This document shows positions 7,818-57,149 of a DNA stretch of 64,000 nucleotides, piece after piece. Made by a program: the position numbers and the translations under genes. The notes under the pieces are model-generated. The model saw nothing but the letters and a program-made list of their open reading frames with translations. It ran no database searches and was not told the origin of the DNA. Position 1 is the stretch's first letter. Each line of letters opens with the position of its first letter. This DNA is from Parachlamydiales bacterium (GTDB lineage Bacteria > Chlamydiota > Chlamydiia > Chlamydiales > CALOCV01): the NCBI GenBank assembly GCA_942491955.1, contig CALOCV010000015.1:47762-111761 (forward strand), in the 5' to 3' direction.

Positions 7818-8303
7818 TTAAAAGATTTTGAACAGGTTCTGAGTGCATCGTTTATCGAGTTGGATTTTTGGCAAAAGTTTGTGGAATAAGGGAGATAAAG
7901 TAAAAATTCTTTTAATATATGTGCCAATTTTTTGGGTTTTGGTAGCTTTTTTTAAGGTTTCGTCGCCCCATTTATTGAGTTGAGAGAGCTGATAGGCAAC
8001 GCGTTTTCCCGTTTCTATCTGTTCTGCACAATCGTATGGTGTCCAATTTTCAAATTTTTGTGTTTTACAACGAGCCGATTTCAGAGTTTTTTCTTGGAGA
8101 TGGCGCCAAGTAAAAATGAGTTTTGTCAGAGAGACGGAATCCCCCTCCTTCGGTTTTTCTTTTGCGAGTGTGAATCTTCGTCCTCCTCGCTTGCCAATGC
8201 TGGGGGAGAGTTGTATCACGAGTTGTTCAAATTCTACAAAATTTCTACAAGATGTGAGTTGAGAAGAGAGAGATTTTGCGGTCATAAATTCTTTTATATG
8301 CAA
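7818..8303 (-). CDS. Hypothetical protein
   Basis: 161-aa ORF with no recognisable motifs. Confidence 0.4.
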   Translation of the reverse strand: MHIKEFMTAKSLSSQLTSCRNFVEFEQLVIQLSPSIGKRGGRRFTLAKEKPKEGDSVSLTKLIFTWRHLQEKTLKSARCKTQKFENWTPYDCAEQIETGKRVAYQLSQLNKWGDETLKKATKTQKIGTYIKRIFTLSPLFHKLLPKIQLDKRCTQNLFKIF

Positions 8304-8367
8304 TAATGGGGTTGTTTTGGAGAATAGCTTAGGAAATTTGTATTTAAAAAGAAAGTTTTAATGGATT

Positions 8368-8949: not shown

Positions 8950-8993
8950 AACAGCTACAATTTTCTCAAATTTTTTTCTGAGTTGTATCGATC

Positions 8994-11012: not shown

Positions 11013-11070
11013 ATTTCTCCTGATAAAAAGATTGGTATTTTTCCTTTCTTCCCTGTACCGTCAATAGCAT

Positions 11071-11490
11071 ATGCTCAGAATTCTTTTCTTACTTTTTTTT
11101 GTATGTTTGTTTCTCCACAGTGAAGAGGGCGTCAAAAATTCCAAACCTTTTCCTGAAGGAGTTCCAGTTGCAGAAAAGTGGCTCCAGCTCCTAGATCAAG
11201 GGCAATATGCAAAAAGTTGGGAGGAAGCCTCTTCAGAGCTGCAATCCAATGTTACCCAGGAGCAATGGGTTTTTGCTCTTGAGACCGTTCGGGGTCCATT
11301 AGGGCATGTTCTTTCCAGGGAATTTATCGATAGTCAGTGGGATGTCGACCAGGAAGGAGAGTGGAGCAAAGAGACTTTAGTTCTTAAATTTCTTACCACC
11401 TTTGCTGAGGCGAAAGAGGTGGATGAACAAGTTTCTTTGGTTCGGTATGGAACAAGAGAATGGAAAGTTCTCGGATACCACGTCGATTAG
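11071..11490 (+). CDS. Secreted DUF4019-like protein
   Basis: Signal peptide MLRILFLLFFVCLFLHS. Pattern LDQGQYAKSWEEAS...QEQWVFALETVRGPLGHVLSREF. Confidence 0.6.
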   Translation: MLRILFLLFFVCLFLHSEEGVKNSKPFPEGVPVAEKWLQLLDQGQYAKSWEEASSELQSNVTQEQWVFALETVRGPLGHVLSREFIDSQWDVDQEGEWSKETLVLKFLTTFAEAKEVDEQVSLVRYGTREWKVLGYHVD

Positions 11491-11556
11491 CCTGATATCT
11501 GAATATCGGCAGTTCTGGTATACTCGCTCTTTAGCGCTTTTATTTTTAAGGATATT

Positions 11557-25449: not shown

Positions 25450-28400
25450 CTAATTATATGTATCCTCTGCATCATCCGATTCTTTGCCTTTACCATGAGG
25501 ATCCTTGCCAGAAGGTGCAATAGGCATGTAACACTCCTCTCGATCGGCTTGATTATAAAAGTCTCCTCTTGGCAATCCAGTTTGGTAATCGTCTTCTTGA
25601 TTCGAGACGGTTTCTGTAGAATGGATAGGCTGTGTTTGATAATCTTCTTCACTAGTTGGTGATATAGTGGAGGCGGCAGATCCAAATGGTTGATAGGCCT
25701 CTTCTTTCTCTGAGGATGATATCGATGTGGGTGAAGCTTTTCTTGCAGAAGAATAGGTAGATAGCTTGCTAAAAAAACCGACTCGTGTTTCTGAATTCTC
25801 CTTAAATTGTTTAAAATGGTCTGCTTTGAGCATTTGTTCTGCTGTCCAGCGTTGTTTTGGATCTATTTGAAGAAGATTTTTAATAACAAAATAGATAGAA
25901 GTCGTTTCAGGATTTTTGAGTTCAGGTATGGTATTAAGGGCATCTTGTATGGTTTCCTGGAGTTTTTCTAAGGTGTCATTGGTTTCAAAAAATGTTTGTT
26001 TTGCTTGCACATTCGGAACAGGAAGATTCAAGAGAGAAACAATGGGTTTTTCTTTCATAAATTCTAGCAACAGGGCTCCAAGCGACCACATATCTAAAGC
26101 TGCGCCGTCGACTTCTTTACAAAAAGGCTTTCGTGTCACGGAACTAAAGAGACCTTCTGGAGCACGATAGCGATAGTCTCCATCTCCTGGATAAATGAAT
26201 TTAGTTGTACTTTCTTTTGCACAGCCAAAGTCGGTGATGCCAATTTTTCCCTCTTTGCTAACAAGAACATTGGCCCCTTTAAGGTCTAGGTGAAAAATGC
26301 GAGGGGATTTTTTACTATCACGATGGAGATGGTAGAGGCCTATACCTATATCATGAGCAATATATTGCGCATATATTGTTTGATAGGTCGATCGATCTTC
26401 AGGGGGAAAGAGGGTTAATTTTGTATAAACATTATCCACACTACCTAAACCCGCTGGTTCCATAAGATGAATCAATCGGTTATTTGCAGGATCGCGGATG
26501 GTATTCTGAATGGGCCAAATGCCTTCCCCTCCTGATTTTTCCGCCGCTGTTTTCTGCGTATTGGCTTCTTTTTCAGAAGCTGTGCAATTTGCCTCTCCTT
26601 CAACCACTTTAGCGACGAAATAACAACCGGGATCCATCTTCCAACAAATGCGAATTTCTCCAAAATTGCCTTTTCCAAAGACTCCTTTCTCATTAGGGAC
26701 CCAACGTGGATTTACAGGGGAACCGGTATTGATTTTTTCGGGAATTACTAAACCTGTTTCCTCGCACACAGATTTTCTTTCTTCTACTTGGCTAAGATCG
26801 AGCCAACCATATTGTCCCTGTCCAAAGACACTTGTAATTTGTTTTTCAATAGGTTGGAGTTCAAAGCTAGCTATCGAACTTGCACGGCCGTTATATATAC
26901 TTTCACGATCCAACAATCGATCCCCATTCCGTCCTCGGCGTGTAAGAATGACGGCACCGCCTCCAATACCGACAGCGATGACGACCCCTGCTACCACGAT
27001 GATCACGATGGTGAGGGTGTTATTCCCTTCACTACTCGACGAATTTCCTGCTGGTGCTGTTGGTTCTGTTGACGAAGAAGAGGGGGGCAAAGAGCTCGAA
27101 AAGGATGGCTCGCTGGTAGGAAGAGAGGATGAGGTGGGTACATTTGAAGAAGAAGAAGAAATATCGGTGGGTAAAGAAGATGAGAAGGAACTTGAATGGG
27201 TAATTGAGGAGGAAGAAGAAGGGGAATGAGACGAAGTTCCTGCACTATCTGTTGTAGCAGGGGTGGAGTTTGATGGATTCATCGAAGAGCTCAAACTAGA
27301 AGAAGCCATGGAAGACGGGTTAGAACTAGAAGAAGCCGTGGAAGACGGGTTAGAACTAGAAGGAGTTGTGGTGGAAGAAGAAGAGGTTGGGATTGTTGAC
27401 CCTGTTGTTGCTTCTGTTGGAGGGGGAATTACCTCGATAAAAAAAGTGTTATTTGCAAAGCCCCCAAAGCCATCGGTTCCCGTTGCAATGACGATATGAG
27501 GACCTAGATGCTCCACAGTAGGCGTTCCCGAAAATGTGTTATTTACAAGAGCTAGCCAATTGGGAAATACTCCTCCAGAAAGGTGAATCGGGTCTTCATC
27601 GGGATCGCCAAATGCTTCCGTTGTGTTAGGTGTGAATGCAAAGAAATTTCCATAAGAGGCTGTTTGGTTACCAATGGGATTGGTTGCGAAAGGGTCGCGA
27701 TTCAATACAGTAATGGTAAAACTCCTGGGATGCGTACCACCAATGCCATCGGTGACACGAGGTGTTACCGTGTGCACTCCCTGATCTCCACTTTGAGGGG
27801 TGCCGTAAAGACTCAAACCAAGGATGTCATAAATGAACATCCCATTAGCAGTTGGAATATAGAGCCAATTATTTAGGGAAAAAGTGCTGGCTGGGGTTTC
27901 TGAGAGGGGGAATCTTCCCACAATTTGAGGAGGGGAGGGATTTCGTCTGATGATGACAATTTCTTGTTGTCCGGCAGAACAGTAGCTGCCGATAACAGCC
28001 CCGCCGCCAGAGGAAATAGCACAAGCACTATTTGAACCCTCATCGAAATTTTTGACAAGAACGGGAGTAAAGCCATCAAATCTGACATAAAGTGAAAAGC
28101 CATTAAAACGTTCAGCAGTATCGATGTACGTAACGGGAGACTGTCTTAACGTGCTTACGCCAAGAGGAATATCTCCGGAAGGGATGGTCTCGAGTGCTTG
28201 GGGATATGTTGTATTAGTGACATCGAGGATGCGTGTGCCTTGCTGATAACCATAAGGGATGAAAAGCAAACCATTTTCGCTGATATGTAACTCTCGGGCC
28301 GTTTCTGTATTGTTAAAAGAACTCACGATCGCAGGGGAGCCAGGATTACTAATATCGACACCATAGACCAGGGGACCTGAACGTTCATTGATCCAAATGA

Positions 28401-29739
28401 TATTTTCCGTTTCTTGCAAAGCAATGAATTCGTAGCTGCCGGGAAACACGGTTACAGGACTTGGAGAAAGAAGATTGGAGATGTCCACCACGCGTAGACC
28501 TCCGAAGCATGAAAGAAACGCAGAAAAAGCGTGGACAACACCATTACCACATAAGTCACCATGTGTATAGGTGCCGAGAGGTTGCGGATTGTTGGGATCC
28601 GAGACGTTCCACACTTGGAAAGGTTCATAGGAAGGAAAGGCGTAGAGGATCTTTGTTGTTGCATTCACAAAAACTTGATTGAAACCGCCAGTGGAAAAAT
28701 GGGAGCGAAGGGTTCCTGCTGTAAAATTTTCCATGACAAACCCTGGTTTAGCGGCAATATCAGGGAAAAGGACGTGTCCATCAGGATCTTCGAAATGATC
28801 GACAATATTTTCCACTTCAAAAGAGTCTCCGACATTGAGTACGATATTGGAGAATTCTTCAATCAAGTCGGGAGGGTTGTTTTGTGCGCGTGAAAAGCCC
28901 CACATCGAAGAAAAGACGATACATGCAGCTGCATGGGAGGAGCTGGCACTGTAGGATAAGGGAGACAGGGCTATACTTCCAAGAGCACCTGCTGCCCAAA
29001 GGGGAAGATCAGGTCCAGTGGAGTAGAGGTTGGATGAAGTAAGAAAAGGAGTCAAAGTGGCGTTGGAAAGGGGGAGTAAGGTCAATAAAAGAAGTTTGCC
29101 TTTGTGCTTTTCTGCGAACTTTGAGGAGTGAAAGAGGGGCTTTAGGGGTAAGCGCAATGTTCCAGTGGCTTCGCCAAGTGCTTGTGCGAGGTAAAAAAGA
29201 TCATCAAAAAAGACTTCTTGAAAAGGTTTTTTAGGAGTGGCATCTTTTGTACAAAAAAAATGCGCTTTTCCGGTATCGAGATGGTTAAAGCGGAAAAGGA
29301 TGCCAAACTCTTCTGTAAGGCAAGAAAATAGTTCCTCTTGAGAGAGATTGGTATAGCCCCATGCTCCGTTGTTGTGGAGTTTGTAGAGAAAAGTGGGTTT
29401 TTCTTTTCGAAGATCTTTGATTTCCCAAATGTCGCAATCGGATCGATTTGCTAACCATTCGTGGAGTGTTGTTTCATCCTGGAAAAGAATTTTTTCCTCC
29501 CAGGAGGTCGATGTATTGCGGAAGGTGATATTCAGAACGCATTTTCCCTTTTCTTTGGTTAGTCGTGCCGATTTGAAGGTGCAGGAGGGCAATTGCGAGG
29601 CAATGAGTCGATTCCAAGCGCTTTCAGTGGCATTGCTGACCCGAGGATCCGTTTGTTTAGAGTGGGAATCAAAAAGGGGAATTGGTTGCACAGGCCGAAA
29701 CCACGAACCAACAATAGGCAAAGAGGAAAAAACGTTCAT
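25450..29739 (-). CDS. Receptor-like membrane Ser/Thr protein kinase: N-terminal domain, LVIVD-repeat beta-propeller, two cadherin/He_PIG-like Ig domains, Ser/Thr-rich stalk, TM helix, eukaryotic-type kinase domain, acidic Tyr-motif tail
   Basis: 1429 aa.
- LVIVD-type repeats: VWNVSDPNNPQPL, LRVVDISNLLSP, VYGVDISNPGSPA, RILDVTNTTYP.
- GTPxxxxxG...D Ig-like repeats at aa 645-772.
- Ser-rich region at aa 775-905.
- TM helix LTIVIIVVAGVVIAVGIGGGAVIL.
- Kinase motifs GKGNFGEI, FVAKVV, HLDLKGANVL, ITDFGCA, YRAPE, DMWSLG. Confidence 0.85.
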   Translation of the reverse strand: MNVFSSLPIVGSWFRPVQPIPLFDSHSKQTDPRVSNATESAWNRLIASQLPSCTFKSARLTKEKGKCVLNITFRNTSTSWEEKILFQDETTLHEWLANRSDCDIWEIKDLRKEKPTFLYKLHNNGAWGYTNLSQEELFSCLTEEFGILFRFNHLDTGKAHFFCTKDATPKKPFQEVFFDDLFYLAQALGEATGTLRLPLKPLFHSSKFAEKHKGKLLLLTLLPLSNATLTPFLTSSNLYSTGPDLPLWAAGALGSIALSPLSYSASSSHAAACIVFSSMWGFSRAQNNPPDLIEEFSNIVLNVGDSFEVENIVDHFEDPDGHVLFPDIAAKPGFVMENFTAGTLRSHFSTGGFNQVFVNATTKILYAFPSYEPFQVWNVSDPNNPQPLGTYTHGDLCGNGVVHAFSAFLSCFGGLRVVDISNLLSPSPVTVFPGSYEFIALQETENIIWINERSGPLVYGVDISNPGSPAIVSSFNNTETARELHISENGLLFIPYGYQQGTRILDVTNTTYPQALETIPSGDIPLGVSTLRQSPVTYIDTAERFNGFSLYVRFDGFTPVLVKNFDEGSNSACAISSGGGAVIGSYCSAGQQEIVIIRRNPSPPQIVGRFPLSETPASTFSLNNWLYIPTANGMFIYDILGLSLYGTPQSGDQGVHTVTPRVTDGIGGTHPRSFTITVLNRDPFATNPIGNQTASYGNFFAFTPNTTEAFGDPDEDPIHLSGGVFPNWLALVNNTFSGTPTVEHLGPHIVIATGTDGFGGFANNTFFIEVIPPPTEATTGSTIPTSSSSTTTPSSSNPSSTASSSSNPSSMASSSLSSSMNPSNSTPATTDSAGTSSHSPSSSSSITHSSSFSSSLPTDISSSSSNVPTSSSLPTSEPSFSSSLPPSSSSTEPTAPAGNSSSSEGNNTLTIVIIVVAGVVIAVGIGGGAVILTRRGRNGDRLLDRESIYNGRASSIASFELQPIEKQITSVFGQGQYGWLDLSQVEERKSVCEETGLVIPEKINTGSPVNPRWVPNEKGVFGKGNFGEIRICWKMDPGCYFVAKVVEGEANCTASEKEANTQKTAAEKSGGEGIWPIQNTIRDPANNRLIHLMEPAGLGSVDNVYTKLTLFPPEDRSTYQTIYAQYIAHDIGIGLYHLHRDSKKSPRIFHLDLKGANVLVSKEGKIGITDFGCAKESTTKFIYPGDGDYRYRAPEGLFSSVTRKPFCKEVDGAALDMWSLGALLLEFMKEKPIVSLLNLPVPNVQAKQTFFETNDTLEKLQETIQDALNTIPELKNPETTSIYFVIKNLLQIDPKQRWTAEQMLKADHFKQFKENSETRVGFFSKLSTYSSARKASPTSISSSEKEEAYQPFGSAASTISPTSEEDYQTQPIHSTETVSNQEDDYQTGLPRGDFYNQADREECYMPIAPSGKDPHGKGKESDDAEDTYN

Positions 29740-32198: not shown

Positions 32199-33143
32199 TT
32201 AGAGTCTTCGTGTCTCATCGCCTCGAGGTTTTGAAAGAAGTCTATTGCTATATTTAAGACCCTTAACACCGCGGCGTTGAAGAGGGGTTCCATGGAGTTT
32301 TTCGGGGGCGTTTTCTAGCTCTTCAATGTCGTTGCTCTGTAGGTGTGTTCCCAAACCCTGATCGGATGAGAATTCGGCATGAGAAGAGAGGAGAGTGCGT
32401 GCATTGTGAGGGCAGACATCTTGGCAGACATCACAACCAAAGAGGTAGCCTGGATTTTTTTCTTGAATCTCTTCGGGAATGGGGTCTTTAGATTCAATGA
32501 GATGATAGGAGAGGCACCGTGTTGCATCGAGAGTGTACGGTGAGATAAGAGCTTGCGTGGGGCAGCTATCCAGACATCGTGTGCAGGAACCGCATCGCGG
32601 AAGGCGGAGTTCGATTCTTTCCTCGGTAAAAGAGAGGGTCGTTAGCAGACCTGAGATGAGGATAAAAGTACCGAAGCGCCGGTGTATGAGAAGAGTATTT
32701 TTCCCCATCCATCCCAAACCCGCTTGGACGGCTAATGCTTTTTCTAATAGGGGAGAGGAGTCGCTAAATCCTTTGGCAATCTCTTTTTGACCCGTTTTTT
32801 CTTCGAGCCATTGAATGAAATTTTTTAATCGTTTTCGATGGATGTGGTGGTAATCTTTTCCTCGTGCGTAGGAAGCGATTAAGCCAGGTTTCTCTTTCGG
32901 ATCGATTTTCTCTTGTTTGTAGTAGGAAACAAAGAGAACGGCCGTTTTAGCTCCTGGAAAAAAAGCTTGAGGGTCGATGCGAGCGCGATTCTCCATATAA
33001 GACATCGACCCATGATATTCCTTCTCGAGCCATTGCAGATAGGAGTCGATCTCTTCTTGTGCGATTTGAGCCGGCGTAATGCCAATGTCATCATAGCCAA
33101 TGGTAAAAGCTTTCTCTCGTAATTCTTCGAACGAGAGGCTCAT
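32199..33143 (-). CDS. queG: Epoxyqueuosine reductase QueG
   Basis: 314 aa. Ferredoxin-type clusters CGSCTRCLDSCP and CDVCQDVCP, plus the QueG-like N-terminal pattern. Confidence 0.9.
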   Translation of the reverse strand: MSLSFEELREKAFTIGYDDIGITPAQIAQEEIDSYLQWLEKEYHGSMSYMENRARIDPQAFFPGAKTAVLFVSYYKQEKIDPKEKPGLIASYARGKDYHHIHRKRLKNFIQWLEEKTGQKEIAKGFSDSSPLLEKALAVQAGLGWMGKNTLLIHRRFGTFILISGLLTTLSFTEERIELRLPRCGSCTRCLDSCPTQALISPYTLDATRCLSYHLIESKDPIPEEIQEKNPGYLFGCDVCQDVCPHNARTLLSSHAEFSSDQGLGTHLQSNDIEELENAPEKLHGTPLQRRGVKGLKYSNRLLSKPRGDETRRL

Positions 33144-44299: not shown

Positions 44300-44306
44300 T
44301 TTTCTT

Positions 44307-44388
44307 GGGGGTGTCGCATAGTGGCAATTGCAAGGGACTGTAAATCCCTCGACTTCGGTCTTCGTCAGTTCGAGTCTGACCGCCCCCA
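44307..44388 (+). tRNA. tRNA-Tyr (GTA), class II with long variable arm
   Basis: Acceptor gggggtg/cgccccc, anticodon arm aggga ctGTAaa tccct, variable arm cgacttcggtcttcg, T-arm gtcag ttcgagt ctgac. Confidence 0.85.
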
Positions 44389-44524
44389 AACCTAGTTCTG
44401 AGTGGGAATTTTCTTCTTTACCCACTTTCTCTAAAATCCTCCAATTACGCAAATTTTACGCACTTGATTGCAGCAAACAGCAGCTATTTTCTGTTACTTT
44501 TCTTTCAGATCATTTTATTTCTTA

Positions 44525-45124
44525 GAACCTGTTTAAAATCTTTCTAATCCTGTATAAACAATTATTTTCCAAGACAATTGTAGGTATTTTATGCCCCATT
44601 GCTATCCTAGCGATATGGATCGTGAACAGTTTAACAAAATTAAACCTCTTCTGGAATCTGCAAGAAAAAAAACACGTCCTAGAGCGGTCGACTTATATGA
44701 TGTAATTTGTGGCATTTCATATGTTTGAAAAACCAGTTTACATATGGTCATCCTTGCTTTTGTCGTTTTATTCGTAAAACAGTTTTGAACGAGTTTTTAG
44801 AAAACAAACTACCACAGAGCCCACAGAGAACACAGAGGGAGGACATATAGATTGTTTAGTGCATCCAGAAATGTCTGAAGAAGTTGTAGAGGATCAGGTA
44901 ATTATAGAAATTAAATCTGTGAATGGAATAGCTCTAATACACGAAGCACAACGACTATCTTATTTAAAGCTCTATGGAACTTGTGCCCGAGGATTGCTGA
45001 TCAATTTTAATGTGAAACGATTGGTAGAAGGCATTCGTCGAATGAAAATATAACCCTCTCTCTGTGCTCTCTGTGGGCTCTGTGGTAGTTTTTATTGCTG
45101 AGATATGTCAACCAAGTTTCTTAA
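44525..45124 (+). mobile_element. IS variant left-end fragment (44525-44750) + GxxExxY module copy 3 (44756-45124)
   Basis: Collinear with 5965-6566. The variant orfA fragment MPHCYPSDMDREQFNKIKPLLESARKKTRPRAVDLYDVICGISYV* ends in a premature stop. Confidence 0.75.
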
Positions 45125-45174: not shown

Positions 45175-45516
45175 TTGGAGGCAATGATGGCTCACTCTTA
45201 TCCAAGCGATATTTCTCGAAAGCAATTTGACAAAATCAAACCTTTGCTTGAGTCTGTGCGAAAAAAAACACGCCCTAGAACCGTAGACCTTTTTGATATT
45301 TTTTGTGGAATTTTATATGTTTTAAAAAGTGGCTGTCAGTGGCGTATGTTGCCAAAAGAATATCCTAAATGGGAACTTTGCTATTACTATTTCCAGTTAT
45401 GGAAAGAAAGCGATGATAATTCAGAAAGCATCCTTGAGAAAGTTTTAAAAAAAAATGGTTGGAGAGGTCCGACAAAACAATGGTCGGAAAGAGAAAACCA
45501 GTTTTATAATAATTGA
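45175..45516 (+). CDS. IS5-family transposase orfA (HTH part)
   Basis: 113 aa. YPSDISRKQFDKIKPLLE...GCQWRMLPKEYPKW is typical of IS5/IS427-group InsA. Confidence 0.8.
   Translation: MEAMMAHSYPSDISRKQFDKIKPLLESVRKKTRPRTVDLFDIFCGILYVLKSGCQWRMLPKEYPKWELCYYYFQLWKESDDNSESILEKVLKKNGWRGPTKQWSERENQFYNN
45447..45455 (+). promoter_or_regulatory. Probable programmed -1 ribosomal frameshift site (A9) joining orfA and orfB
   Basis: The A-run lies in the orfA/orfB overlap. A -1 slip gives ...EKVLKKKMVGEVRQNNGRKEKTSFIIIDAQSVK. Confidence 0.55.
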
Positions 45517-45976
45517 TGCGCAAAGCGTTAAAAATACCGATACAGCTGAGAGTAAAGGGTATGATGCAGGAAAAAAAATTTCAGGGATAAAACGACACAT
45601 CGCTGTAGACACCCAAGGATTACCTCATGCAATTCATATAACTACAGCAAATATTACAGATAGGAAAGGAGCGCTAGAAGCATGTTCATTGAAGAAGAGT
45701 TTTTTATCTGAAGTAAAAAACGTTTTAGCTGATGGAGGATACTCTGGAGAACCATTTTCAGATGGTATTCAAGAGATATTGGGTTGTCCAGTAGAAATAG
45801 CCAAGAGAAATGAATTGCATACTTTTAAAGTGATTCCCAAAAGATGGGTTGTGGAACGTTCTTTTAGCTGGCTTGAAAAGTGTAGAAGATTATGGAAAAA
45901 CTGTGAAAGAAAGCTAAATACTAGCTTAACTATGGTAGTCTTAGCATTTGTAGTTCTTCTTTTAAAAAGATTTTAA
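45455..45976 (+). CDS. IS5-family transposase orfB (DDE domain)
   Basis: 173 aa. IIDAQSVKNTD, ADGGYSGEPF, RWVVERSFSWLEKCRRL. Confidence 0.85.
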   Translation: MVGEVRQNNGRKEKTSFIIIDAQSVKNTDTAESKGYDAGKKISGIKRHIAVDTQGLPHAIHITTANITDRKGALEACSLKKSFLSEVKNVLADGGYSGEPFSDGIQEILGCPVEIAKRNELHTFKVIPKRWVVERSFSWLEKCRRLWKNCERKLNTSLTMVVLAFVVLLLKRF

Positions 45977-46068
45977 ACAGGTTCTAAGGGACAAAACCTT
46001 TAAACGTAAGTCCTTTTTGTCTTTTAGGTCTCTCAGGTCCTTTTCGTCCCTTTGTCCCTTTTAGTACG

Positions 46069-46148
46069 ATGAAAAGCCTTTTCCGCCCTCCCAAGGTGTC
46101 TATCAAGTCTGCTTTCCTATTCGGAAAGCGGACATTATTTTCTCTATA
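46069..46148 (+). pseudogene. Degenerate 5' remnant of a four-helix-bundle-family gene with its upstream leader repeat
   Basis: DNA similarity of 45990-46148 to 54400-54560 (…ttttcgtcccttNNgtcccttttagtacgatgaaaa…ctatcaagtNtgctttcctat…). The remnant ends in a stop after 26 codons. Confidence 0.4.
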
Positions 46149-47678: not shown

Positions 47679-47957
47679 TTAGTCAGCATCTCCTCCGTCA
47701 CCCCCATTGCCTCCGATGCCATAGACGCTTCCACCTCCATTACCACCGTGGCCGCCATGTTGCCCATTTTTGCCGTCCTCTCCGTCTTCTCCATTCTCTC
47801 CATCTTCAAGATAGCTTGAAGAGCCATGTTCTCCGTCTTTTGTCCTGGAGGGTTGTTCAACATCATTGGAAATTCTTCTCGTTCCATAGGCATTTAATGA
47901 AGAAAATGTAATGAGCATACATCCAATGAGCATACAAAATAAATCAGTCATTTTCAT
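47679..47957 (-). CDS. Secreted Gly-rich repeat protein 3 (acidic: GEDGEDG...GGHGGNGGG...GGNGGDGGDAD)
   Basis: 92 aa. Signal-peptide-like N-terminus ending SSLNA|Y. RBS-like aaaggaa 10 nt upstream of the ATG. Confidence 0.65.
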   Translation of the reverse strand: MKMTDLFCMLIGCMLITFSSLNAYGTRRISNDVEQPSRTKDGEHGSSSYLEDGENGEDGEDGKNGQHGGHGGNGGGSVYGIGGNGGDGGDAD

Positions 47958-47981
47958 TTGTTAAAATTCCTTTTAATAGGG

Positions 47982-48299
47982 TTACTTGCTTTTACCGTCT
48001 TGTCCGTCACTGCCATTGCCAGCGGGTCCTCTGCCTCCCATGCCGCCTAAGCCCCCGCCTTGCGAGCCATCTCCACCGTTTCCTCCATTGCCACCCCTGC
48101 CATATTGGCTATCTCCTCCATTACCGCCGTGGCCGCCACGCCCAGAATTGCTGTTCCCGCCATTCCCTCCGTTACCACCATCCTCATGAATGCTATTTCC
48201 CCCATGGCCACCATTACCTCCATCTCTTGCATGCAATGCTATTGTTGCGTTCATGAAAACAACCAAAGAAAGCAAAATTTTTAGAGTCATATTTTTCAT
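47982..48299 (-). CDS. Secreted Gly-Asn-His repeat protein 2
   Basis: 105 aa. Signal peptide MKNMTLKILLSLVVFMNATIALHA, then GGNGGHGGNS...GGNGGNGGNSNSGRGGHGGNGGDSQYGRGGNGGNGGDG. The start overlaps the upstream gene's stop (ATGA). Confidence 0.7.
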   Translation of the reverse strand: MKNMTLKILLSLVVFMNATIALHARDGGNGGHGGNSIHEDGGNGGNGGNSNSGRGGHGGNGGDSQYGRGGNGGNGGDGSQGGGLGGMGGRGPAGNGSDGQDGKSK

Positions 48300-48526
48300 C
48301 CCGCATCTCCTCCATGACCGCCATTACCACCGCTAACTCCTCCATGTCCGCCGTTGCCACCATGTCCTCCATTGCCAGAACCACTATTCCCGCCATTACC
48401 ACCATTGCCTGCGCTTCCAGGAGAATGACCTCCATGACCACCATTCCCTCCATTAGCAGCTTGTAAATCTGCTGCTAATAACAACGCCAATAAAGAAAAG
48501 ATTAACAAAATTTTTCTCGATTTCAT
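48296..48526 (-). CDS. Secreted Gly-Asn-His repeat protein 1
   Basis: 76 aa. Signal peptide MKSRKILLIFSLLALLLAADLQA, then ANGGNGGHGGHSPGSAGNGGNGGNSGSGNGGHGGNGGHGGVSGGNGGHGGDAG. RBS aagggag 7 nt upstream. Confidence 0.7.
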   Translation of the reverse strand: MKSRKILLIFSLLALLLAADLQAANGGNGGHGGHSPGSAGNGGNGGNSGSGNGGHGGNGGHGGVSGGNGGHGGDAG

Positions 48527-50496: not shown

Positions 50497-51897
50497 ATGA
50501 ATCAACAAAAAAAAGCAGCTTTCATGGTTTGTGGCACCCACAGTGGTGTAGGTAAGACAACAGCGAGTTTCGTTATTTTATCTCTTCTTAAAGAAAAAAG
50601 ATATACAGTCCAGCCATTCAAACAAGGACCCGATTTTATCGATCCAGGTTATCATCAGTTTGTTACAGGGAAAAATTCGATAAACTTGGATTTTTGGATG
50701 ATGAGGCGAAAAGAAATCATCAACAGCTTTCACGAGGCTATGCAAGATGCTGAAATAGGAGTTGTTGAGGGAATGGGAGCTATCTTCGATGGTCATAACG
50801 GAACATATGAAGGGTGTGGAGCTGATTTGGCCTCTTTACTTTCGATTTCGATGGTACTTGTGGTCGATGTTTCTGGGATGACACGAAGTGTTAATGCACT
50901 TTTACAAGGATTTATCGACTATCTTCCTTCTCTTTCCATTGTAGGTATTCTTTTTAATCGTGTAGGAAGCAAAAAACACTATGAAATGATTCTTGATACT
51001 TTATCTCCTCGATTTCGTTCGTTATCTATCGGTTATCTCCTCAATTTTCATTCTGCAAATATTCCTGAAAGACATCTGGGTTTGCTTACTATTGAAGAAA
51101 ACCAGCAAATGCAAGAAATCATGAAACCATATCTCGAGCTCGCAAGAAGCACTCTTGCACTAGATTCTCTTCTTCAAAAAATTCTTCCTTTAAAAAATGC
51201 GATCATCAAAAGAAAGGCGAGCTCTGTAAAAAAAAATCATATACGTATAGGAATTGCTCGAGACAAGGCCTTTTGTTTTTACTATCAAAAAAATTTAGAA
51301 ATTTTGGAGAGAAGTGGAGCCGCTCTTGTTGATTTTAGTCCTATAAATGACACAACTCTTCCAGATGATATTGATGCACTCTATTTAGGAGGGGGGTATC
51401 CAGAAATATTTGCCAAAGAATTAGAAGAAAACCAGACCTTAAAATCGCAAATTGTAAAAAGGGCTGATGCAGGAATGCCCATTTATGCTGAGTGTGGTGG
51501 ATTTATTTTCCTTTGTAAGACACTCATGTTAGATGATTCGACGAGTTATTTGATGGCAGGAGTGTTTCCTTATACGATTCGATGGGACAAAACATTTCTT
51601 GCGATTAAATATGTGAGAGTGAGAACAACACGCGGAACGATACTTGGTCCTAAGAATACTTTCGTCCAAGGCCAAGAATTTCACCAGACACGCGTAGAGA
51701 AGCCAACCGCAGAATATTGTGGCTCTTATGAAGTGACGAGCTCTACTCAGGAACATTTTTTTGAGGGATATTGTACAAAAAATGTGTTAGGCGGCTATAT
51801 TCACCTCTACTTTCCTTCCAATCCGAAGATAGTAGAAAATTTTATAAAAAAAGGTGCTCTTTATCGAAGACGAAGGCATGCTTTATCATTTTCTTAA
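50497..51897 (+). CDS. CbiA/CobB-family ATP-dependent amidotransferase (cobyrinic acid a,c-diamide synthase-like)
   Basis: 466 aa. P-loop GTHSGVGKTT, ERHLGL, ARDKAFCFYY, GGGYPE, and GATase Cys in AECGGFIF. Confidence 0.85.
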   Translation: MNQQKKAAFMVCGTHSGVGKTTASFVILSLLKEKRYTVQPFKQGPDFIDPGYHQFVTGKNSINLDFWMMRRKEIINSFHEAMQDAEIGVVEGMGAIFDGHNGTYEGCGADLASLLSISMVLVVDVSGMTRSVNALLQGFIDYLPSLSIVGILFNRVGSKKHYEMILDTLSPRFRSLSIGYLLNFHSANIPERHLGLLTIEENQQMQEIMKPYLELARSTLALDSLLQKILPLKNAIIKRKASSVKKNHIRIGIARDKAFCFYYQKNLEILERSGAALVDFSPINDTTLPDDIDALYLGGGYPEIFAKELEENQTLKSQIVKRADAGMPIYAECGGFIFLCKTLMLDDSTSYLMAGVFPYTIRWDKTFLAIKYVRVRTTRGTILGPKNTFVQGQEFHQTRVEKPTAEYCGSYEVTSSTQEHFFEGYCTKNVLGGYIHLYFPSNPKIVENFIKKGALYRRRRHALSFS

Positions 51898-53023
51898 TCG
51901 AAAAGTCATTTTTTTATTCGTTTTTTGTTTTCCAGTACAGGATGTTTGGAGCATTGAAGAAAAAGTAAAGGTTGCTGTTGTTCATTTTAAACCAGACCAT
52001 AGAGAGGTTGAAGCCAATATCAACCGATTAGTACATTTAGCGGAAGAAGCTGGGAATAATGGTGCTAAAATTGTTGTGTTTCCAGAGCTTGCAACATCAG
52101 GTTATTCCTATTTTAACAGGAATCAGATACGCGAAGTCGCTGAAGAATTTCCAGGGGAGACGACAAAAAGTCTTGGCCGGGTAGCAAAAAAATATGGATT
52201 ATACATTGTTGTCGGAGTTCCAGAGTATAGCAGTTTGACAAATCTTTTTTACAATTCTTGCGCTCTTATTGATCCCTATGGAGAGATTGTTGGTATATCT
52301 CGAAAACACTCTCATTTAATGGAATCTTGTTGGTGTGCTTCAGGAAATGGACATGTTCCTATTTTTGACACAATATATGGAAAAATAGCCATTTTGATTT
52401 GTGCAGATTTACATTTCTCTGATCTCGCAATCCAAGTATTTCGTGAAGATGTCCTGTTTTTGATTGCACCGACAAATGCAGGGGTGAGCACAGATTTGTT
52501 GAAGGCTAGAGCTGTTGAAGGTCGCTGTCATCTTCTTCTTTCTAATCGCTATGGAAATGAAAAAGAAGCTTTTTCAAGTATAGAGAAATCAGAACAGTTC
52601 AATGAGGACACTTTAACGATAATTCCTCCTTTTCCGTATGATTTTCAAGATGGGAAAAGTGTGATTGTGGATATGCAAGGTCAGATACAAGTCATGATCG
52701 AAGATCCCTATGATTCTATTGGTTATTGTGAACTTTTTTTTAAGGATAGGCCAAAAGAGACTGTAGTGAGAAGATCTGACTTGGATGTTATTTTAGAAAA
52801 ATCAATTATTGTCAATTCAAGGCGGTTCCAAAAGGAAGAAAAATCTTCTGAAAACTATGTTAAAGGAGGAATGGAAGCAGATTCTGATGGCAATGTCAAG
52901 GCATATGGAGAATTGGGAAGAACAACCACAGACAAAGATTCTAGTGACACGATAACGCTGTCAGGAGAGATTGATTCAGACGGAAATTATGCTGTGCGGG
53001 GAGAATATAAAAGTACTTGGTAA
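51878..53023 (+). CDS. Nitrilase-superfamily carbon-nitrogen hydrolase with N-terminal signal/anchor and ~100-aa C-terminal extension
   Basis: Glu-Lys-Cys triad contexts VFPELATSGY, ISRKHSHLM, ILICADLHF. The start was moved to the internal MLYHFLNRKVIFLFVFCF (track start 51854). Confidence 0.8.
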   Translation: MLYHFLNRKVIFLFVFCFPVQDVWSIEEKVKVAVVHFKPDHREVEANINRLVHLAEEAGNNGAKIVVFPELATSGYSYFNRNQIREVAEEFPGETTKSLGRVAKKYGLYIVVGVPEYSSLTNLFYNSCALIDPYGEIVGISRKHSHLMESCWCASGNGHVPIFDTIYGKIAILICADLHFSDLAIQVFREDVLFLIAPTNAGVSTDLLKARAVEGRCHLLLSNRYGNEKEAFSSIEKSEQFNEDTLTIIPPFPYDFQDGKSVIVDMQGQIQVMIEDPYDSIGYCELFFKDRPKETVVRRSDLDVILEKSIIVNSRRFQKEEKSSENYVKGGMEADSDGNVKAYGELGRTTTDKDSSDTITLSGEIDSDGNYAVRGEYKSTW

Positions 53024-53024
53024 T

Positions 53025-53891
53025 ATGTATCGATTGATTGCTGCTCTGCTTGTTGTATTCGTTCTATGGATCCATTCAAATCTTAACGGAATAACAAAAA
53101 TATCATTTAATGTTGATAAAGCCGGTATGCCTTTTTTTGAAGGTTGTCTTGAAGGTAAAACATTTCCCGTATGGTTTGACTTTGGATCCGCATCTTCTCA
53201 TTTCAGGTCTGAAAAGGTGTCAGGTAATGTTAAACAAAAACTTACATCCGAAGCACGACTTGTAAATAATATTACGGGAGAAAAAGAAACTCATACCGAA
53301 TGGAAAATACAAGGATTGCAAATCAATGGATATACTATTCCGTTTATTATTGCAATAGAACAAACAGAAGATTGTCATTATTTTTCTGTGAATTCGGAAA
53401 ATGATATTTCACAACTTTCTGGTACAGAGCCTTATCCACCTATTGTATTAGGTAATCCTGTTTTTGCTCAAACTCCTTTTCTTCTTGATCTTATGAACAA
53501 AGAAATGATTATTTATGAAGAAAATGATTCATATGTTGAAATGATTCAGGGATGGGTGGAACTTCCTTTAAAAAAAGAAAGAGGAATGTATGTTGTTGTC
53601 TTAAAGAATGAAGATACGCCTTTATTACTTTGCGTAGATACGGGTTCTACTGTGAATATGTTTTTTAATAAAGAGGAGAAGAGTAATAAGAACTTTCTTC
53701 TCAAAAAGACGGATATTCATATGTTGAAATACCAGGATTTTCTATTGGACGTCGGATTTTTTTATCAAATGTCAAGAGAGGATGATTCTGCGATCAGCGG
53801 AGTTCTTGGAGCTCCTTTTTTTAAAAACAGACCCGTATTGATTGATTGTAAGAAGGAAAAAATGTTTTTCCCATTAACAAGTCAATCTTGA
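53025..53891 (+). CDS. Secreted protein with two retropepsin-like half-domains (DFGS and DTGS motifs); putative pseudo-dimeric aspartic protease
   Basis: Signal peptide MYRLIAALLVVFVLWIHS. Motifs FPVWFDFGSASSHF and LLLCVDTGSTVNMFF sit about 160 aa apart. The start was moved to the ATG 2 nt after the upstream stop. Confidence 0.45.
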   Translation: MYRLIAALLVVFVLWIHSNLNGITKISFNVDKAGMPFFEGCLEGKTFPVWFDFGSASSHFRSEKVSGNVKQKLTSEARLVNNITGEKETHTEWKIQGLQINGYTIPFIIAIEQTEDCHYFSVNSENDISQLSGTEPYPPIVLGNPVFAQTPFLLDLMNKEMIIYEENDSYVEMIQGWVELPLKKERGMYVVVLKNEDTPLLLCVDTGSTVNMFFNKEEKSNKNFLLKKTDIHMLKYQDFLLDVGFFYQMSREDDSAISGVLGAPFFKNRPVLIDCKKEKMFFPLTSQS

Positions 53892-53919
53892 GATCTTGCA
53901 ATGAATATTTGGAAGCAGA

Positions 53920-54147
53920 TTGAGAGAGGTTATTATGGCGGATAAAGAAAAGCAAGACATTCATAAGATTCTATTGGCTGCCCACAAACGAGGCGTGCAG
54001 CAGGCGATTGATCTCTCGATCCGCACGGGCGTGCCGCTTGTCATAGAAAAGAATGGGAAGATTATTGAAATACCACCAAAGTACAAATACATTCGGGTGC
54101 CCATTGAGGCGGACAAGCCTAAGCGTCCGCACAAAAGGAAGACCTAG
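53920..54147 (+). CDS. Small protein with basic tail (KPKRPHKRKT) at the distal end of an island module
   Basis: 75-aa ORF. Its 3' end is duplicated as a remnant at about 50115-50170 (PIETSKLKRPRKRKT*). Confidence 0.5.
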   Translation: MREVIMADKEKQDIHKILLAAHKRGVQQAIDLSIRTGVPLVIEKNGKIIEIPPKYKYIRVPIEADKPKRPHKRKT

Positions 54148-54365
54148 GAATTTCTTGGATATGTCGGCTGAGAAATTTACGCAAATTTTACGCACTTGGC
54201 CACAAACAAGTGGAGCAAAAGGGCACAATTCAGCACAATAGAGTCTTTCGAAAAGGATTGATTTTGCTGTGCTTATGTGCTCTTGTTTGCTGCGGTCTAT
54301 AGAAAGAGAACCGACTGTAAATCCCTCGACTTCGGTCTTCGTTGGTTCGAGTCCAATCGCCCCCA
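54095..54365 (+). repeat. att-like repeat block R2 ending in a 53-nt near-perfect copy of the tRNA-Tyr 3' part
   Basis: 54313-54365 gactgtaaatccctcgacttcggtcttcgttggttcgagtccaatcgccccca, compared with tRNA 44336-44388. The T-stem differences are compensatory (gtcag/ctgac -> gttgg/ccaat). Confidence 0.75.
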
Positions 54366-54479
54366 AAAAGGACAAGGGACATAAAGGACCTAAGGGACCT
54401 AAAAAAAGAGACCAAAGGGACAATGTTTCAGTTTGGTGTCTCTTTGGTCCTTTTCGTCCCTTAAGTCCCTTTTAGTACG

Positions 54480-55203
54480 ATGAAAAAATCCTTCTTACCA
54501 CCCCATGGTGGCTATCAAAGTTTGCTTTCCTATCAAAAAGCTGAAATCGTTTACGACGCTACCGTTTATACCAATTCCGGTAAGAAAATGCATAAAGTGG
54601 ATTCAGGATTTTTTTGCGAAATTTGTTTTGGAGATCGTAGCAAACTCTTGTGAGTTTGCAAGATAGAAAAACAGATTGCGCAAAGAAAGATGAAGATCAA
54701 TTTGTGCACTTTCTTACCGGAATTGGTATTACTTCACGCAAAGGTTTTATCGAAAAGGGGATCGCACGATGGATCAAATGGTTCAGGCGGCGCGTTCGGG
54801 TAAGCAAAACATTGCCGAAGCCAGTCAAGCATCGGGAACATCGAAAGAGATGGAGATTAAGTTGACGAATGTCGCTCGAGCAAGTCAAGAAGAGTTATTG
54901 TTAGATTATCGGGATTTTCTTCGGATTCATCAACTCGAAGAGTGGGCAAAAGATCACCCCCTTACAAGTCGGTTGCGTATTTTATGTAAATCTCCTCAAC
55001 CCACCTACACAACGTTTCAAAAAGGGATAGAACATTCCGAACCAGTCATTTCCGCCAATGTCATCATCGGTTTAATCAAAGTAACCAATTATCTTCTTGA
55101 CCAGCAAATTCGTCGGTTAGAGGAAGACTTTTTGCGCGAAGGAGGCTTGCGCGAACGGATGACCAAAGCCAGACTTGCTGTTCGCAATCAAAGAAAACGC
55201 TAG
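54480..55203 (+). pseudogene. Four-helix-bundle family protein (with suffix-type C-terminal domain) interrupted by a MITE-1 insertion
   Basis: MKKSFLPPHGGYQSLLSYQKAEIVYDATVY | 162-bp MITE | (Y)FTQRFYRKGDRTMDQMVQAARSGKQNIAEASQASGTSKEMEIKLTNVARASQEELLLDYRDFL... The flanks are in frame, and the MITE contains stop codons. Confidence 0.8.
54568..54729 (+). mobile_element. MITE-1 copy D, inserted inside a coding sequence
   Basis: Full-length, with both TIRs. Differs from copy A at only a few positions. Confidence 0.85.
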
Positions 55204-55345
55204 TCAACATCTCCTCCATTACCCCCATTGCCACCCCTGCCATATTGGCTATCTCCTCGATTACCGCCGTGGCCGCCATGCCCAGAATTGCTGTTCCCAT
55301 CATTCCCTCCATTAGCAGCTTGTAAATCTGCTGCTAATAACAACG
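55200..55345 (-). pseudogene. Truncated chimeric paralogue of the Gly-Asn-His repeat genes
   Basis: Minus-strand reading LLAADLQAANGGNDGNSNSGHGGHGGNRGDSQYGRGGNGGNGGDVD*. It joins protein-1-like signal-peptide end to a protein-2-like core. An in-frame stop lies immediately upstream, so there is no full signal peptide. Confidence 0.6.
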
Positions 55346-55437
55346 TCAATATCGGATGGCAGGTGCAAGATTATTTGTATCTGTCCTTCCAGGAGATGAG
55401 GACGAAATAGAAGAGCTTTACAAGAGGTGGTATTAAT

Positions 55438-56439
55438 TCAAGTCTCTTTGCTTAGTGGGAGATTCTCTAGTTCAATAATATCGGCCTTATCCGCTTCCAA
55501 TTTTTCTAGGTGCTTTCTATTATTGTTAAATTCTGTGTAACGTTCCAATGCTAGTTGTTCGGCTATCTGTGCTGAAATTTGTCCTGAATGATTCAAAATT
55601 GCTCTATCATTAAATGAAAGAAAGGCGTCAAGTTTATCAGCCCATTCGTTCATGGTCATAGTTTTACGTCTTTTAGCTTGATCTTCAGCATAGTCTAGAT
55701 ACATCGTAACAATTCTATTAAGTTCATTAATTTCTTCTTGAGAAAGATAGTTTTTAGCAATCGTTATATCGCCTTGACGAACTCGACTTCCCTTCCAGCT
55801 GGTAAGACCCATATTTGGTAGCTGTGGATTTGCACGATGACAAATTAGTTCGGCGGCAGTATGTCCAGTCAACGCCCAAAACATCTTATTTTGGACCTTT
55901 TTAAAGAAAAAATGTGCTTGACCGCTCTTAGGGTCGTAGTCTACAGCGGTTGTATAGATATCTTTTACTTTTTGATAGAATCGCTTTTCAGAAGCCCGAA
56001 TTTCACGAATTCGCTCAAGCAATTCATCAAAGTAATCCCAACTTCCAGGCTCTTTAAGACGAACATCGTCTAGTATGAAGCCTTTAACTAGATATTCTTG
56101 CAAATGAGATGTTGCCCATCTGCGAAACTGGGTGCCTCGTGCAGAGCGAACTCTGTATCCAATTGCCAAAATGATGCTAAGCTCATAGAGCTTTACCTCT
56201 CTTTGTATGTTCCTATTTCCCTCCTTTTGAACTAGTAAGTAATCCTTACTAGTTGAGTTGGGATCTGCCTCATTTTCTTCGTAAATTCTTTGTATATGAA
56301 GAGTTATGTTCTGGGGAGTTGTTTGAAACAGTTCGGCAATTTCTGAGCGAGTTAACCAAACTGTTCCTTCTTCGGCTTTCAATTGAACAGAAGTCTTTCC
56401 GTCATCAGTTGTGTAAAGGATAATTTCGCCGTTAGACAT
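55438..56439 (-). CDS. RhuM-family protein
   Basis: 333 aa. ILYTTDDGKTSVQL...VWLTRSEIAELFQTTPQNITLHI...AIGYRVRSARGTQFRRWAT is characteristic of the RhuM family. Confidence 0.85.
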   Translation of the reverse strand: MSNGEIILYTTDDGKTSVQLKAEEGTVWLTRSEIAELFQTTPQNITLHIQRIYEENEADPNSTSKDYLLVQKEGNRNIQREVKLYELSIILAIGYRVRSARGTQFRRWATSHLQEYLVKGFILDDVRLKEPGSWDYFDELLERIREIRASEKRFYQKVKDIYTTAVDYDPKSGQAHFFFKKVQNKMFWALTGHTAAELICHRANPQLPNMGLTSWKGSRVRQGDITIAKNYLSQEEINELNRIVTMYLDYAEDQAKRRKTMTMNEWADKLDAFLSFNDRAILNHSGQISAQIAEQLALERYTEFNNNRKHLEKLEADKADIIELENLPLSKET

Positions 56440-56639
56440 TGACTGCTTCTTTTGGATAAATTTTAGAAATTATCATACTTGCGATAACTAAATTTTCCCA
56501 GTCAAAAGTTCTGAATCCGTCCAACCGCCCTCAATAAAAGAACAAAGGGACAATGTCTTTCAGTGAGGTGTCTAATAGGGTCCCCAAAAATTAGACAACC
56601 CATTTTGCCTCTTAGGTCCTTTTTGTCGTTTTCGTCCCT

Positions 56640-56729
56640 TTAATACGATGAAAAGTCTTTTCCCTCCTTTAACACTTCGATTACTGCTTTTAATTTGAAT
56701 TCGGGTGTGTGCCGTTTTCTTTGTGACAT
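56640..56729 (-). pseudogene. IS3-family transposase orfA N-terminal remnant
   Basis: Minus-strand MSQRKRHTPEFKLKAVIEVLKEGKDFSSY*, a typical IS3 InsA start truncated after 29 aa. Confidence 0.45.
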
Positions 56730-56912: not shown

Positions 56913-57149
56913 TTACTCAGCAAGTCGTTTCAAAGCGCCTCCATATTTCTTATTGACTCTTTTTAAAGAATTTGAAAATTGCTTTTTTCCCACCTTACTC
57001 TTTACTGGCGTGACAACAATGGTGACACCATCTGGTGTCGAAATCTGAAGTAAGGTTTGCTCATCGATTCCTAAAAGTTCTAGAACTGCCTTTTCAATCA
57101 CTAGGGCATAGCTATTACCATGCTTCGTCAGTTTTTTAGTAATCGTCAT
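56913..57149 (-). CDS. AbrB/MazE/SpoVT-family antitoxin-like protein (no intact partner toxin adjacent)
   Basis: 78 aa. KLTKHGNSYALVIEKAVLELLGIDEQT swapped-hairpin motif. Confidence 0.7.
   Translation of the reverse strand: MTITKKLTKHGNSYALVIEKAVLELLGIDEQTLLQISTPDGVTIVVTPVKSKVGKKQFSNSLKRVNKKYGGALKRLAE

Follow-up and report, generated by a model that had tools for sequence, protein, structure and literature searches.

A CbiA-like amidotransferase and an exported hydrolase as a mobile two-gene cassette, possibly for corrinoid salvage, in a genomic island of a Parachlamydiales bacterium

Introduction

What does an amidotransferase of corrin biosynthesis do where no other gene of that pathway is found beside it, and why is its closest neighbour an exported hydrolase? 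The question is raised by a stretch of 64,000 nucleotides (nt) from a Parachlamydiales bacterium (contig CALOCV010000015.1, positions 47,762 to 111,761), which in its full length is called the window below, and in particular by a module of four open reading frames (ORFs) in it. An earlier note, made from the letters of this DNA alone, had read three of the genes as one island module and had suggested that its two enzymes tailor an unknown substrate and are not part of cobalamin synthesis. We find that the real unit is smaller: it consists of the first two genes, which form a horizontally mobile cassette. Its best explanation, in our view, is that it serves corrinoid salvage, with a partner enzyme of a new type. 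The four genes are:

50497-51897, plus strand: ORF1, 466 amino acids (aa), amidotransferase of the CbiA/CobB family
51878-53023, plus strand: ORF2, ATG start (a GTG lies upstream at 51854), exported C-N hydrolase in a truncated form
53025-53891, plus strand: ORF3, ATG start (a TTG lies upstream at 52971), predicted pepsin-like aspartic protease
53935-54147, plus strand: ORF4, ATG start (a TTG lies upstream at 53920), small ORF with a basic tail

They are co-directional and tightly packed between two direct repeats of about 270 nt that resemble phage attachment (att) sites, just as had been described before; ORF1 and ORF2 overlap by 20 nt, and ORF3 starts two bases past the stop of ORF2. The description of ORF1 as an orphan also stands for the window, where no cob gene was found elsewhere among the about 45 larger ORFs that were scanned.

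A conserved gene pair

The linkage was assessed in loci that encode a hydrolase scoring above 200 bits and have usable flanks. In 15 of 15 such loci a CbiA-like gene adjoins the hydrolase gene. These loci are:

L001: Chlamydiales metagenome-assembled genome (MAG), BAAHGQ010000010.1
L002/L003 and L004: together with L001 from chlamydial or uncultured sources
L005: Hyalangium versicolor, NZ_JAHXBF010000005.1
L006: Pseudobdellovibrionaceae
L007: Thermoanaerobaculia
L008: Paraliomyxa miuraensis
L009: uncultured actinomycete
L085 and L096: JGI
L086: Bradyrhizobium sp. NC92
L088: Streptomyces rimosus
L097: TARA
L098: ENA ERZ25039586, contig_63595
L101: counted with the others

Four further, shorter metagenome contigs also hold both genes. 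Altogether the pair is found in about 20 loci in six phyla. The pair ranges over Chlamydiales, Hyalangium, Paraliomyxa, Pseudobdellovibrionaceae, Thermoanaerobaculia, Actinomycetes (including Streptomyces rimosus) and Bradyrhizobium, and it can be studied in the cultured carriers Streptomyces rimosus, Bradyrhizobium sp. NC92, Hyalangium versicolor and Paraliomyxa miuraensis. In eight loci the two genes share 4-25 nt, and the chlamydial relatives, where the shared stretch is 20-25 nt, are arranged as in the window. L006 and L008 have the two genes in reversed order and L009 has them in convergent orientation, so the linkage survives rearrangement. Since about 20 loci in six phyla keep the two genes together despite such changes of gene order, the pairing is a genuine functional linkage. 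An all-against-all clustering of the flanking ORFs gave no third conserved neighbour, and no relatives of ORF3 or ORF4 were found in the other pair loci. The three-gene module that had been proposed thus holds for the amidotransferase and the hydrolase, which are conserved as a pair, and fails for the protease, which like ORF4 never accompanies them elsewhere.

Several of the locus contexts suggest that the cassette is mobile. The pair in L001, which is 66% identical to the window over 2.1 kb of DNA, begins about 70 nt after a tRNA-Leu, a phage-type integrase lies near the pair in L096, and the Bradyrhizobium pair is surrounded by genes for a resolvase, a Mob protein and a methyltransferase.

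The amidotransferase

ORF1 consists of a CbiA domain (PF01656, 5.5e-12) followed by a GATase_3 domain (PF07685, 1.1e-36). CbiA/CobB enzymes (EC 6.3.5.11 / 6.3.5.9) convert a carboxylate to an amide with ATP and glutamine, and ORF1 shares with them the DTBS-like ATPase domain together with GATase_3, the P-loop, the KxGPD(F/Y)(I/L)DP motif and the ECGG nucleophile with its His. In an alignment of 18 family members it has the P-loop residues S16, G19, K20 and T21, as well as K42, G44, P45, D46, D49 and E91 and the glutaminase elbow E332-C333-G334-G335 with H436, all of them invariant in the alignment. It reaches 429.7 bits on the CobB equivalog model of NCBIfam (NF002204, cut-off 254) and 376.1 bits on TIGR00379 (cut-off 261.4), whereas it stays below the cut-off of the CfbB model (359.1 bits against 560). 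Judged by its sequence ORF1 is intact, being of full length and having kept every invariant residue of the family, and the earlier view of it as a complete CbiA/CobB-like enzyme is borne out. An alternative start at 50524 fits the 457-aa NCBI product P0001. The nearest named relative is a protein of the "Chlamydiales bacterium" MAG from which L001 comes (58% identity), and the gene content of the window, with an H+-PPase and a giant Ser/Thr kinase, is compatible with a probable origin in that group; identities are 42-58% to the paired homologues and 28-35% to CbiA/CobB proteins embedded in operons.

For the phylogenetic placement, which the earlier note had left for later work, seven CbiA/CobB proteins from annotated cob operons were used as comparators (Klebsiella, Thermus, Deinococcus, Ralstonia, Pseudosulfitobacter, Trichlorobacter and Haloferax). 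All 16 paired CbiA-like proteins fall in one neighbour-joining clade of their own, with a bootstrap value of 65. Identities are 40-78% within the clade and 26-43% to the seven operon-embedded proteins, and 11 positions are invariant in the paired clade and absent from the canonical enzymes. The mean identity between paired and canonical proteins is 35%, compared with 39% among the canonical ones themselves; the divergence is no greater between the groups than within the canonical group, and sequence divergence in itself is therefore no argument for a new substrate. The paired clade also differs from canonical CbiA/CobB in its surroundings: its members were never found in a cob operon, they always adjoin an exported tandem protein of the nitrilase fold, and they often have a mobile context. 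The canonical comparators sit in cob operons, an embedding that ORF1 lacks.

The simplest account of ORF1 would be that it is the ordinary cobyrinate a,c-diamide synthase of a de novo pathway whose other genes lie outside the window. Its family membership by sequence agrees with this, and so does the fact that the 64 kb inspected belong to a contig of 206,862 bp, itself part of a larger genome. We nevertheless regard it as very improbable, because ORF1 groups with the hydrolase-paired proteins and not with the operon-embedded ones, because the module sits in a low-G+C island between att-like repeats, and because the pair of Bradyrhizobium sp. NC92 lies among the resolvase, Mob and methyltransferase genes mentioned above. 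To our knowledge, Chlamydiae are not known as corrin producers either.

The exported hydrolase

ORF2 matches the CN_hydrolase family (PF00795, 2.2e-34), and the intact catalytic triad that had been seen in it is confirmed and extended to a tetrad, E70, K143, E149 and C175, which is invariant in a 12-member alignment. The active domain spans about residues 28-300, and the AlphaFold (AF2) model has an alpha-beta-beta-alpha core in which many blocks have a predicted local distance difference test (pLDDT) value above 85. The fold and the Glu-Lys-Glu-Cys set are shared with single-domain amidases of the nitrilase superfamily, among which are the closest solved structures (PH0642 1j31, 6ypa, 7ovg and 3ivz; E-values from 1e-21 to 1e-25). 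The N-terminus is hydrophobic and signal-like. Export signals were judged by eye on the N-termini of 10 homologues and the window protein, and all partner hydrolases inspected have a signal peptidase I (SPI) or lipoprotein signal.

The subfamily is small and well delimited. A search of 5.8 billion proteins gave only 14 close relatives of ORF2, with 38-60% identity, and beyond these the similarity falls sharply to generic nitrilase-superfamily proteins at 30% or less, so that the boundary to other C-N hydrolases runs between at least 38% identity inside and at most 30% outside. Full-length relatives have about 550-600 aa and consist of an SPI or lipoprotein signal, the active domain, a linker and a further domain, which is a diverged duplicate of the active one (residues 361-534 of P0121 against the ORF2 domain, 29% identity, E = 1e-9). 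This second domain comprises about 250 aa and is catalytically dead, the catalytic Glu being replaced by Ser and the Cys by Gly. It is present in 10 of the 12 aligned homologues. The single-domain amidases differ from the full-length members of the subfamily in these two additions, the export signal and the second domain without Glu and Cys.

ORF2 itself follows the subfamily to about residue 299 and then diverges, and its second domain is absent. Residues 301-381 have no homologue and a pLDDT below 50, and no remnant of a second domain was found anywhere in the window. The tail of about 100 aa, which had earlier been noted as unusual, is thus a scar, a low-confidence replacement of the lost pseudo-enzyme domain, and not a feature of the family. 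We also considered whether ORF3 could be the missing C-terminal half of the hydrolase, which was ruled out (BLASTP, E = 0.6). The same 381-aa product is encoded in L087, a Logan contig from another run that is 99.96% identical to window positions 51744-54015; this independent contig shows that the arrangement of the genes did not arise from misassembly.

A damaged hydrolase is found in L001 as well. In this copy from the nearest genome the gene (11298-12320) has become a pseudogene: the reading frame is shifted at least twice and broken by one in-frame stop, and domain 2 is lost; the truncation is at another point than in ORF2, at about residue 338, and the CbiA-like gene beside it is intact. 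The window hydrolase may be decaying, and one could go further and regard the whole module of the window as what is left of a cassette that was gained by horizontal transfer and is now falling apart, without current function, in which the tight packing of four genes is accidental. The loss of a domain that most homologues keep, with an unrelated tail of low pLDDT in its place, speaks for such a relic, as do the L001 pseudogene, a CobQ remnant in L097, the decayed state of the left att-like repeat and the other gene fragments that the surrounding island holds. However, ORF1 is of full length with all its invariant residues, the first hydrolase domain is uninterrupted and has an intact tetrad, an independent assembly gives the same hydrolase product, and ORF1 and ORF2 still overlap by 20 nt, as is typical of chlamydial copies that are intact. 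On these grounds we find a relic without function unlikely.

Tandem nitrilase-related proteins are also found in the cytoplasm, in Bacillus methanolicus PB1 (L012, 9974-11596) and on Klebsiella and Pantoea plasmids (L172/L173). They were rejected as members of the subfamily, as they have no export signal and no CbiA neighbour. The Bacillus gene lies beside genes for AIR-synthase-like, glycosyltransferase and FMN-reductase proteins, and the enterobacterial genes beside AmiC-like and ANTAR regulators. With one active and one degenerate domain these proteins indicate that the tandem architecture is wider than the exported subfamily.

A possible role in corrinoid salvage

One informative context is that of L098. 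In the region 558-11051 there are two Cobalamin riboswitches (RF00174; 82.6 and 60.7 bits, gathering score 31.5), and downstream of them come genes for a TonB-dependent receptor, for a 599-aa tandem C-N hydrolase that is exported, and for CobQ, the last of which scores 553.9 bits on its equivalog model (cut-off 273). CobQ/CbiP, cobyric acid synthase, is the sister corrin amidotransferase of CbiA, and here it is translationally coupled to the exported tandem hydrolase. The first domain of this hydrolase has an intact triad; the protein is only about 26% identical to the CbiA-linked subfamily, and the window, unlike L098, is without CobQ. The CbiA-like/hydrolase pair of L098 is transcribed divergently from the riboswitch operon, out of the same intergenic region, and a PduO-type adenosyltransferase and a B12-binding domain of the methylmalonyl-CoA-mutase type are encoded 4-6 kb away. 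The hydrolase of this pair is split by a frameshift into 426 and 122 aa.

CobQ is found near the pair in five loci, L098, L002/L003, L101, L102 and, as an 89-aa remnant, L097. In L002/L003, L101 and L102 it lies within 3 kb of the pair, and in the chlamydial contig L002/L003, where it scores 546.9 bits, it adjoins it. In Hyalangium versicolor (L005, 5780-11575) the pair is part of an operon with the order Peripla_BP_2, ABC_tran, FecCD, CbiA-like, hydrolase, in which FecCD and the CbiA-like gene overlap by 11 nt and the importer is of the BtuFCD type. The window has a gene for QueG, the cobalamin-dependent epoxyqueuosine reductase (Fer4_16 and QueG_DUF1730; 32199-33143, minus strand), and the organism thus has at least one client for B12.

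These contexts bring together uptake machinery and both corrin amidotransferases, each matched to an exported amidase, with one unit under B12 control, and because of this we give an even chance to the proposal that the cassette acquires or processes exogenous corrinoids, or very similar tetrapyrrole polycarboxylates. An export or pro-drug scheme, or an unrelated substrate, would fit these contexts poorly. Of the earlier suggestion that the enzymes tailor some compound rather than take part in cobalamin synthesis, one part stands, as the pair does not belong to de novo synthesis, and the other does not, as the informative contexts point to corrinoid uptake and amidation.

We infer both the corrinoid substrate and the order of the reactions, hydrolysis outside and re-amidation inside. 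An incoming corrinoid would first meet the exported amidase outside the cytoplasmic membrane and have its amide-type side chains hydrolysed, the product would be imported, the cytoplasmic CbiA-like enzyme would rebuild the acetamide side chains, and CobQ, where present, would rebuild the propionamides. This specific scheme is put forward tentatively, and other chemistry would fit as well, such as opening of a c-lactam, or a removal of the nucleotide loop in the manner of CbiZ followed by completed amidation. CbiZ, the adenosylcobinamide amidohydrolase of cobamide remodelling, is the only case known to us in which the hydrolysis of an amide is an established part of corrinoid salvage. Side-chain amide hydrolysis is what the pair hydrolase would have in common with it, for the pair hydrolase as a proposal; CbiZ differs in having an unrelated fold, in being cytoplasmic and in not being coupled to CbiA.

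Several observations weigh against a role in corrinoid acquisition. Neither the module of the window nor any of about 20 other pair loci has a cobalamin riboswitch, and at relaxed thresholds no RNA element of any kind was found between 49.9 and 54.5 kb of the window; the riboswitches of L098 drive the neighbouring operon and not the pair itself. Most pair loci have no other corrinoid genes within 8-10 kb. Haem and siderophores, too, are taken up by importers of the BtuFCD or FecCD type and by TonB receptors. A cycle of hydrolysis and rebuilding costs ATP and glutamine and has no demonstrated rationale. Neither of the two subfamilies is known to have a characterised member, and the PDB holds no full-length CbiA. 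Finally, the copy of the window may be non-functional, as the hydrolase is damaged in both Chlamydiales genomes from NCBI, truncated in the window and with frameshifts and a stop in L001.

Some of the same observations would suit another explanation, that the CbiA fold was recruited and the cassette tailors or recycles a non-corrinoid polycarboxylate or amide, for instance a siderophore, a tetrapyrrole of the haem or sirohaem type or an envelope component. The distinct clade with its 11 clade-only invariant positions is what one would expect, and the window and most other loci lack nearby cob genes and riboswitches, while FecCD importers and TonB receptors are not specific for B12. CbiA homologues are known to act on other tetrapyrroles, namely CfbB, and DsrN on sirohaem, and the pair occurs both in genomes that we take to have de novo B12 synthesis and in genomes that we take to lack it. 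On the other hand, ORF1 scores far above the CobB cut-off and below that of CfbB, the paired proteins are about as similar to the canonical enzymes as these are to each other, a bona fide CobQ lies beside the pair in five loci, and the CobQ of L098 comes with an exported hydrolase of its own, both encoded downstream of two cobalamin riboswitches. A non-corrinoid substrate is in our opinion rather doubtful.

The corrinoid role, if taken to its full extent, would amount to an undescribed salvage route in at least six phyla, in which exported amidases of the CbiA- and CobQ-matched subfamilies strip or open corrinoids in the periplasm, the carboxylates are imported, and re-amidation follows. We consider such a route possible, well short of probable. 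No CbiA-nitrilase system or periplasmic corrinoid amidase system was found described in the literature searched. Among predicted cobamide non-producers, 2.6% are reported to carry cbiA/cobB, a count that came without an explanation (PMC6461909). If true, the salvage route would explain the "orphan" cbiA of some B12 non-producers. In the loci studied here the orphan is one half of a fixed, mobile pair whose other half is an exported amidase, and CobQ can have a like partner under cobalamin riboswitch control. The route also gives a testable hypothesis for the processing that environmental corrinoids undergo before uptake or in the course of it. The genes cbiA and cobB are used as metagenomic markers of B12 production, and members of the paired clade would then be false positives. 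The window's own contribution is smaller, and consists of a damaged copy of the cassette and of a separate, well-modelled family of bacterial pepsin-like proteases, which is treated below.

Beside the CobQ gene and the pair in L002 (5453-6043) there is a 196-aa polytopic membrane protein, DUF6580, a possible transporter, for which NCBIfam, PDB and literature gave no match.

The tRNA-Tyr island

The setting of the module in the window is defined by the following elements:

44306-44389, plus strand: tRNA-Tyr (GTA), found by ARAGORN and Rfam, anchor of the island array
50118 to about 50380, plus strand: R1, left att-like direct repeat, with an ORF4-like 3' remnant, a spacer and a decayed 3' half of tRNA-Tyr
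54097-54367, plus strand: R2, right att-like direct repeat, ending in a tRNA-Tyr copy at 54313-54367

R1 and R2 have 85% column identity. The end of R2 is a 91% copy of the tRNA-Tyr from the anticodon loop to the 3' end (44336-44390), and the corresponding copy in R1 is decayed and has a 7-nt deletion. As in tRNA-linked islands generally, the direct repeats contain the 3' part of the target tRNA. The module has a G+C content of 0.36-0.38 versus about 0.43 for the window. The best explanation is that the cassette of the window was acquired in a tandem island array at the tRNA-Tyr. Among the ORFs of the region 44.4-57 kb no integrase was found; there is only a DDE transposase at 45455-45976, just downstream of the tRNA-Tyr, a possibly partial ORF of 173 aa that is flanked by a 35-nt inverted repeat (44513-44547 / 45962-45996). 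A defence system was considered for the module and dropped, as none of the four proteins matched the anti-phage defence models of PADLOC.

ORF4 encodes 70-75 aa with a basic C-terminus and has no match in Pfam, NCBIfam, PADLOC or PHROGs. Both R1 and R2 open with the last 16 codons of ORF4 or of an ORF4-like gene, and its sole relative is its own 3' remnant in R1. Its 3' end being part of the repeats, ORF4 belongs to the end of the island and not to the enzyme cassette.

The aspartic protease

ORF3 is the best-modelled protein of the module. A word-indexed search with it gave only one copy, 99% identical, and an exhaustive phmmer search gave 42 relatives of like length. In an alignment of 34 members the residues D52, G54, G143, D155, D205, T206, G207, L261, G262, F265 and D274 are invariant or nearly so, and D52 (in DFGS) and D205 (in DTGS) are invariant, one in each lobe; for the N-lobe the Asp and the Gly are found in 34 of 34, with a hydrophobic residue between them. 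ORF3 itself stays below the thresholds of Pfam and NCBIfam and has no match there, and 30 of the 34 family members match PF13650 and 26 match PF13975. The AF2 model has a pLDDT of 90.1 and a predicted template modelling (pTM) score of 0.86, and against the PDB the E-values of its top 50 Foldseek matches run from 7e-11 to 6e-9, with a probability of 1.0 and a TMq of 0.50-0.60 for the pepsin-like bilobal proteins among the best. The top matches are renin, plasmepsins, conglutin-gamma, basic 7S globulin and 9iy9, a putative endopeptidase of Bacteroides fragilis; some of them are catalytically inactive plant homologues, which calls for caution.

On the strength of the model we confidently predict that ORF3 is a bilobal, pepsin-like (tandem retropepsin-like) aspartic protease that bears a signal or anchor, and the pepsin-like bilobal fold that had earlier been suspected is confirmed by the model, with two conserved Asp. 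With the A1 pepsins and clan AA (PF13650/PF13975) it shares the bilobal fold and, in each lobe, an Asp-x-Gly and an (I/L)(L/I)G motif. The C-lobe motif D205-T206-G207-S is canonical, whereas the N-lobe of the family has D-F/L-G-S where pepsin-like proteases have D-T/S-G, so that the Thr/Ser of the classical "fireman's grip" is absent. ORF3 is also short (288 aa) and has an N-terminal helix as an anchor, unlike known pepsin-like proteases. Relatives were found neither near other pair loci nor in the JGI metagenome contigs, and ORF3 is lineage-specific cargo, functionally unlinked to the cassette. A phage origin of ORF3 and ORF4 was considered and rejected, as PHROG matches are absent. A 1-nt indel between the window (about 53860) and L087 (about 2120) alters the last about 12 codons of ORF3, which gives 288 and 299 aa, respectively.

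Other genes of the window

The surroundings of the module hold other gene fragments. A family of 60-nt repeats is found at 46030-46089, 54441-54500 and 56609-56668; the repeats comprise the upstream region and the first codons of genes of the type "four-helix-bundle / 23S rRNA IVS". Only the copy at 54480 goes on (54480-54653, then 54769-55203), and it is broken near a 32-nt inverted repeat (54568-54599 / 54698-54729). The next island segment encodes a RhuM-family protein and a small AbrB/MazE-like ORF (55438-56439 and 56913-57149, minus strand); no toxin partner was identified.

On the minus strand at 47679-48526 there are three paralogous small proteins with signal peptides and Gly/Asn/His repeats of the GGNGGHGG type, and a 5' remnant of a fourth copy is found 7 kb away at 55208-55351. 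It had been conjectured that the amidotransferase and the hydrolase could interconvert Asn and Asp in such repeat proteins. This has no support: the differences between Asn and Asp/Glu among the Gly/Asn-rich paralogues are encoded in the DNA, and we know of no CbiA-family enzyme that acts on proteins.

Farther away in the window, a protein of 1429 aa (25450-29739, minus strand) has a C-terminal Ser/Thr kinase domain after a long unannotated N-terminal region, and an H+-PPase is also among the genes.

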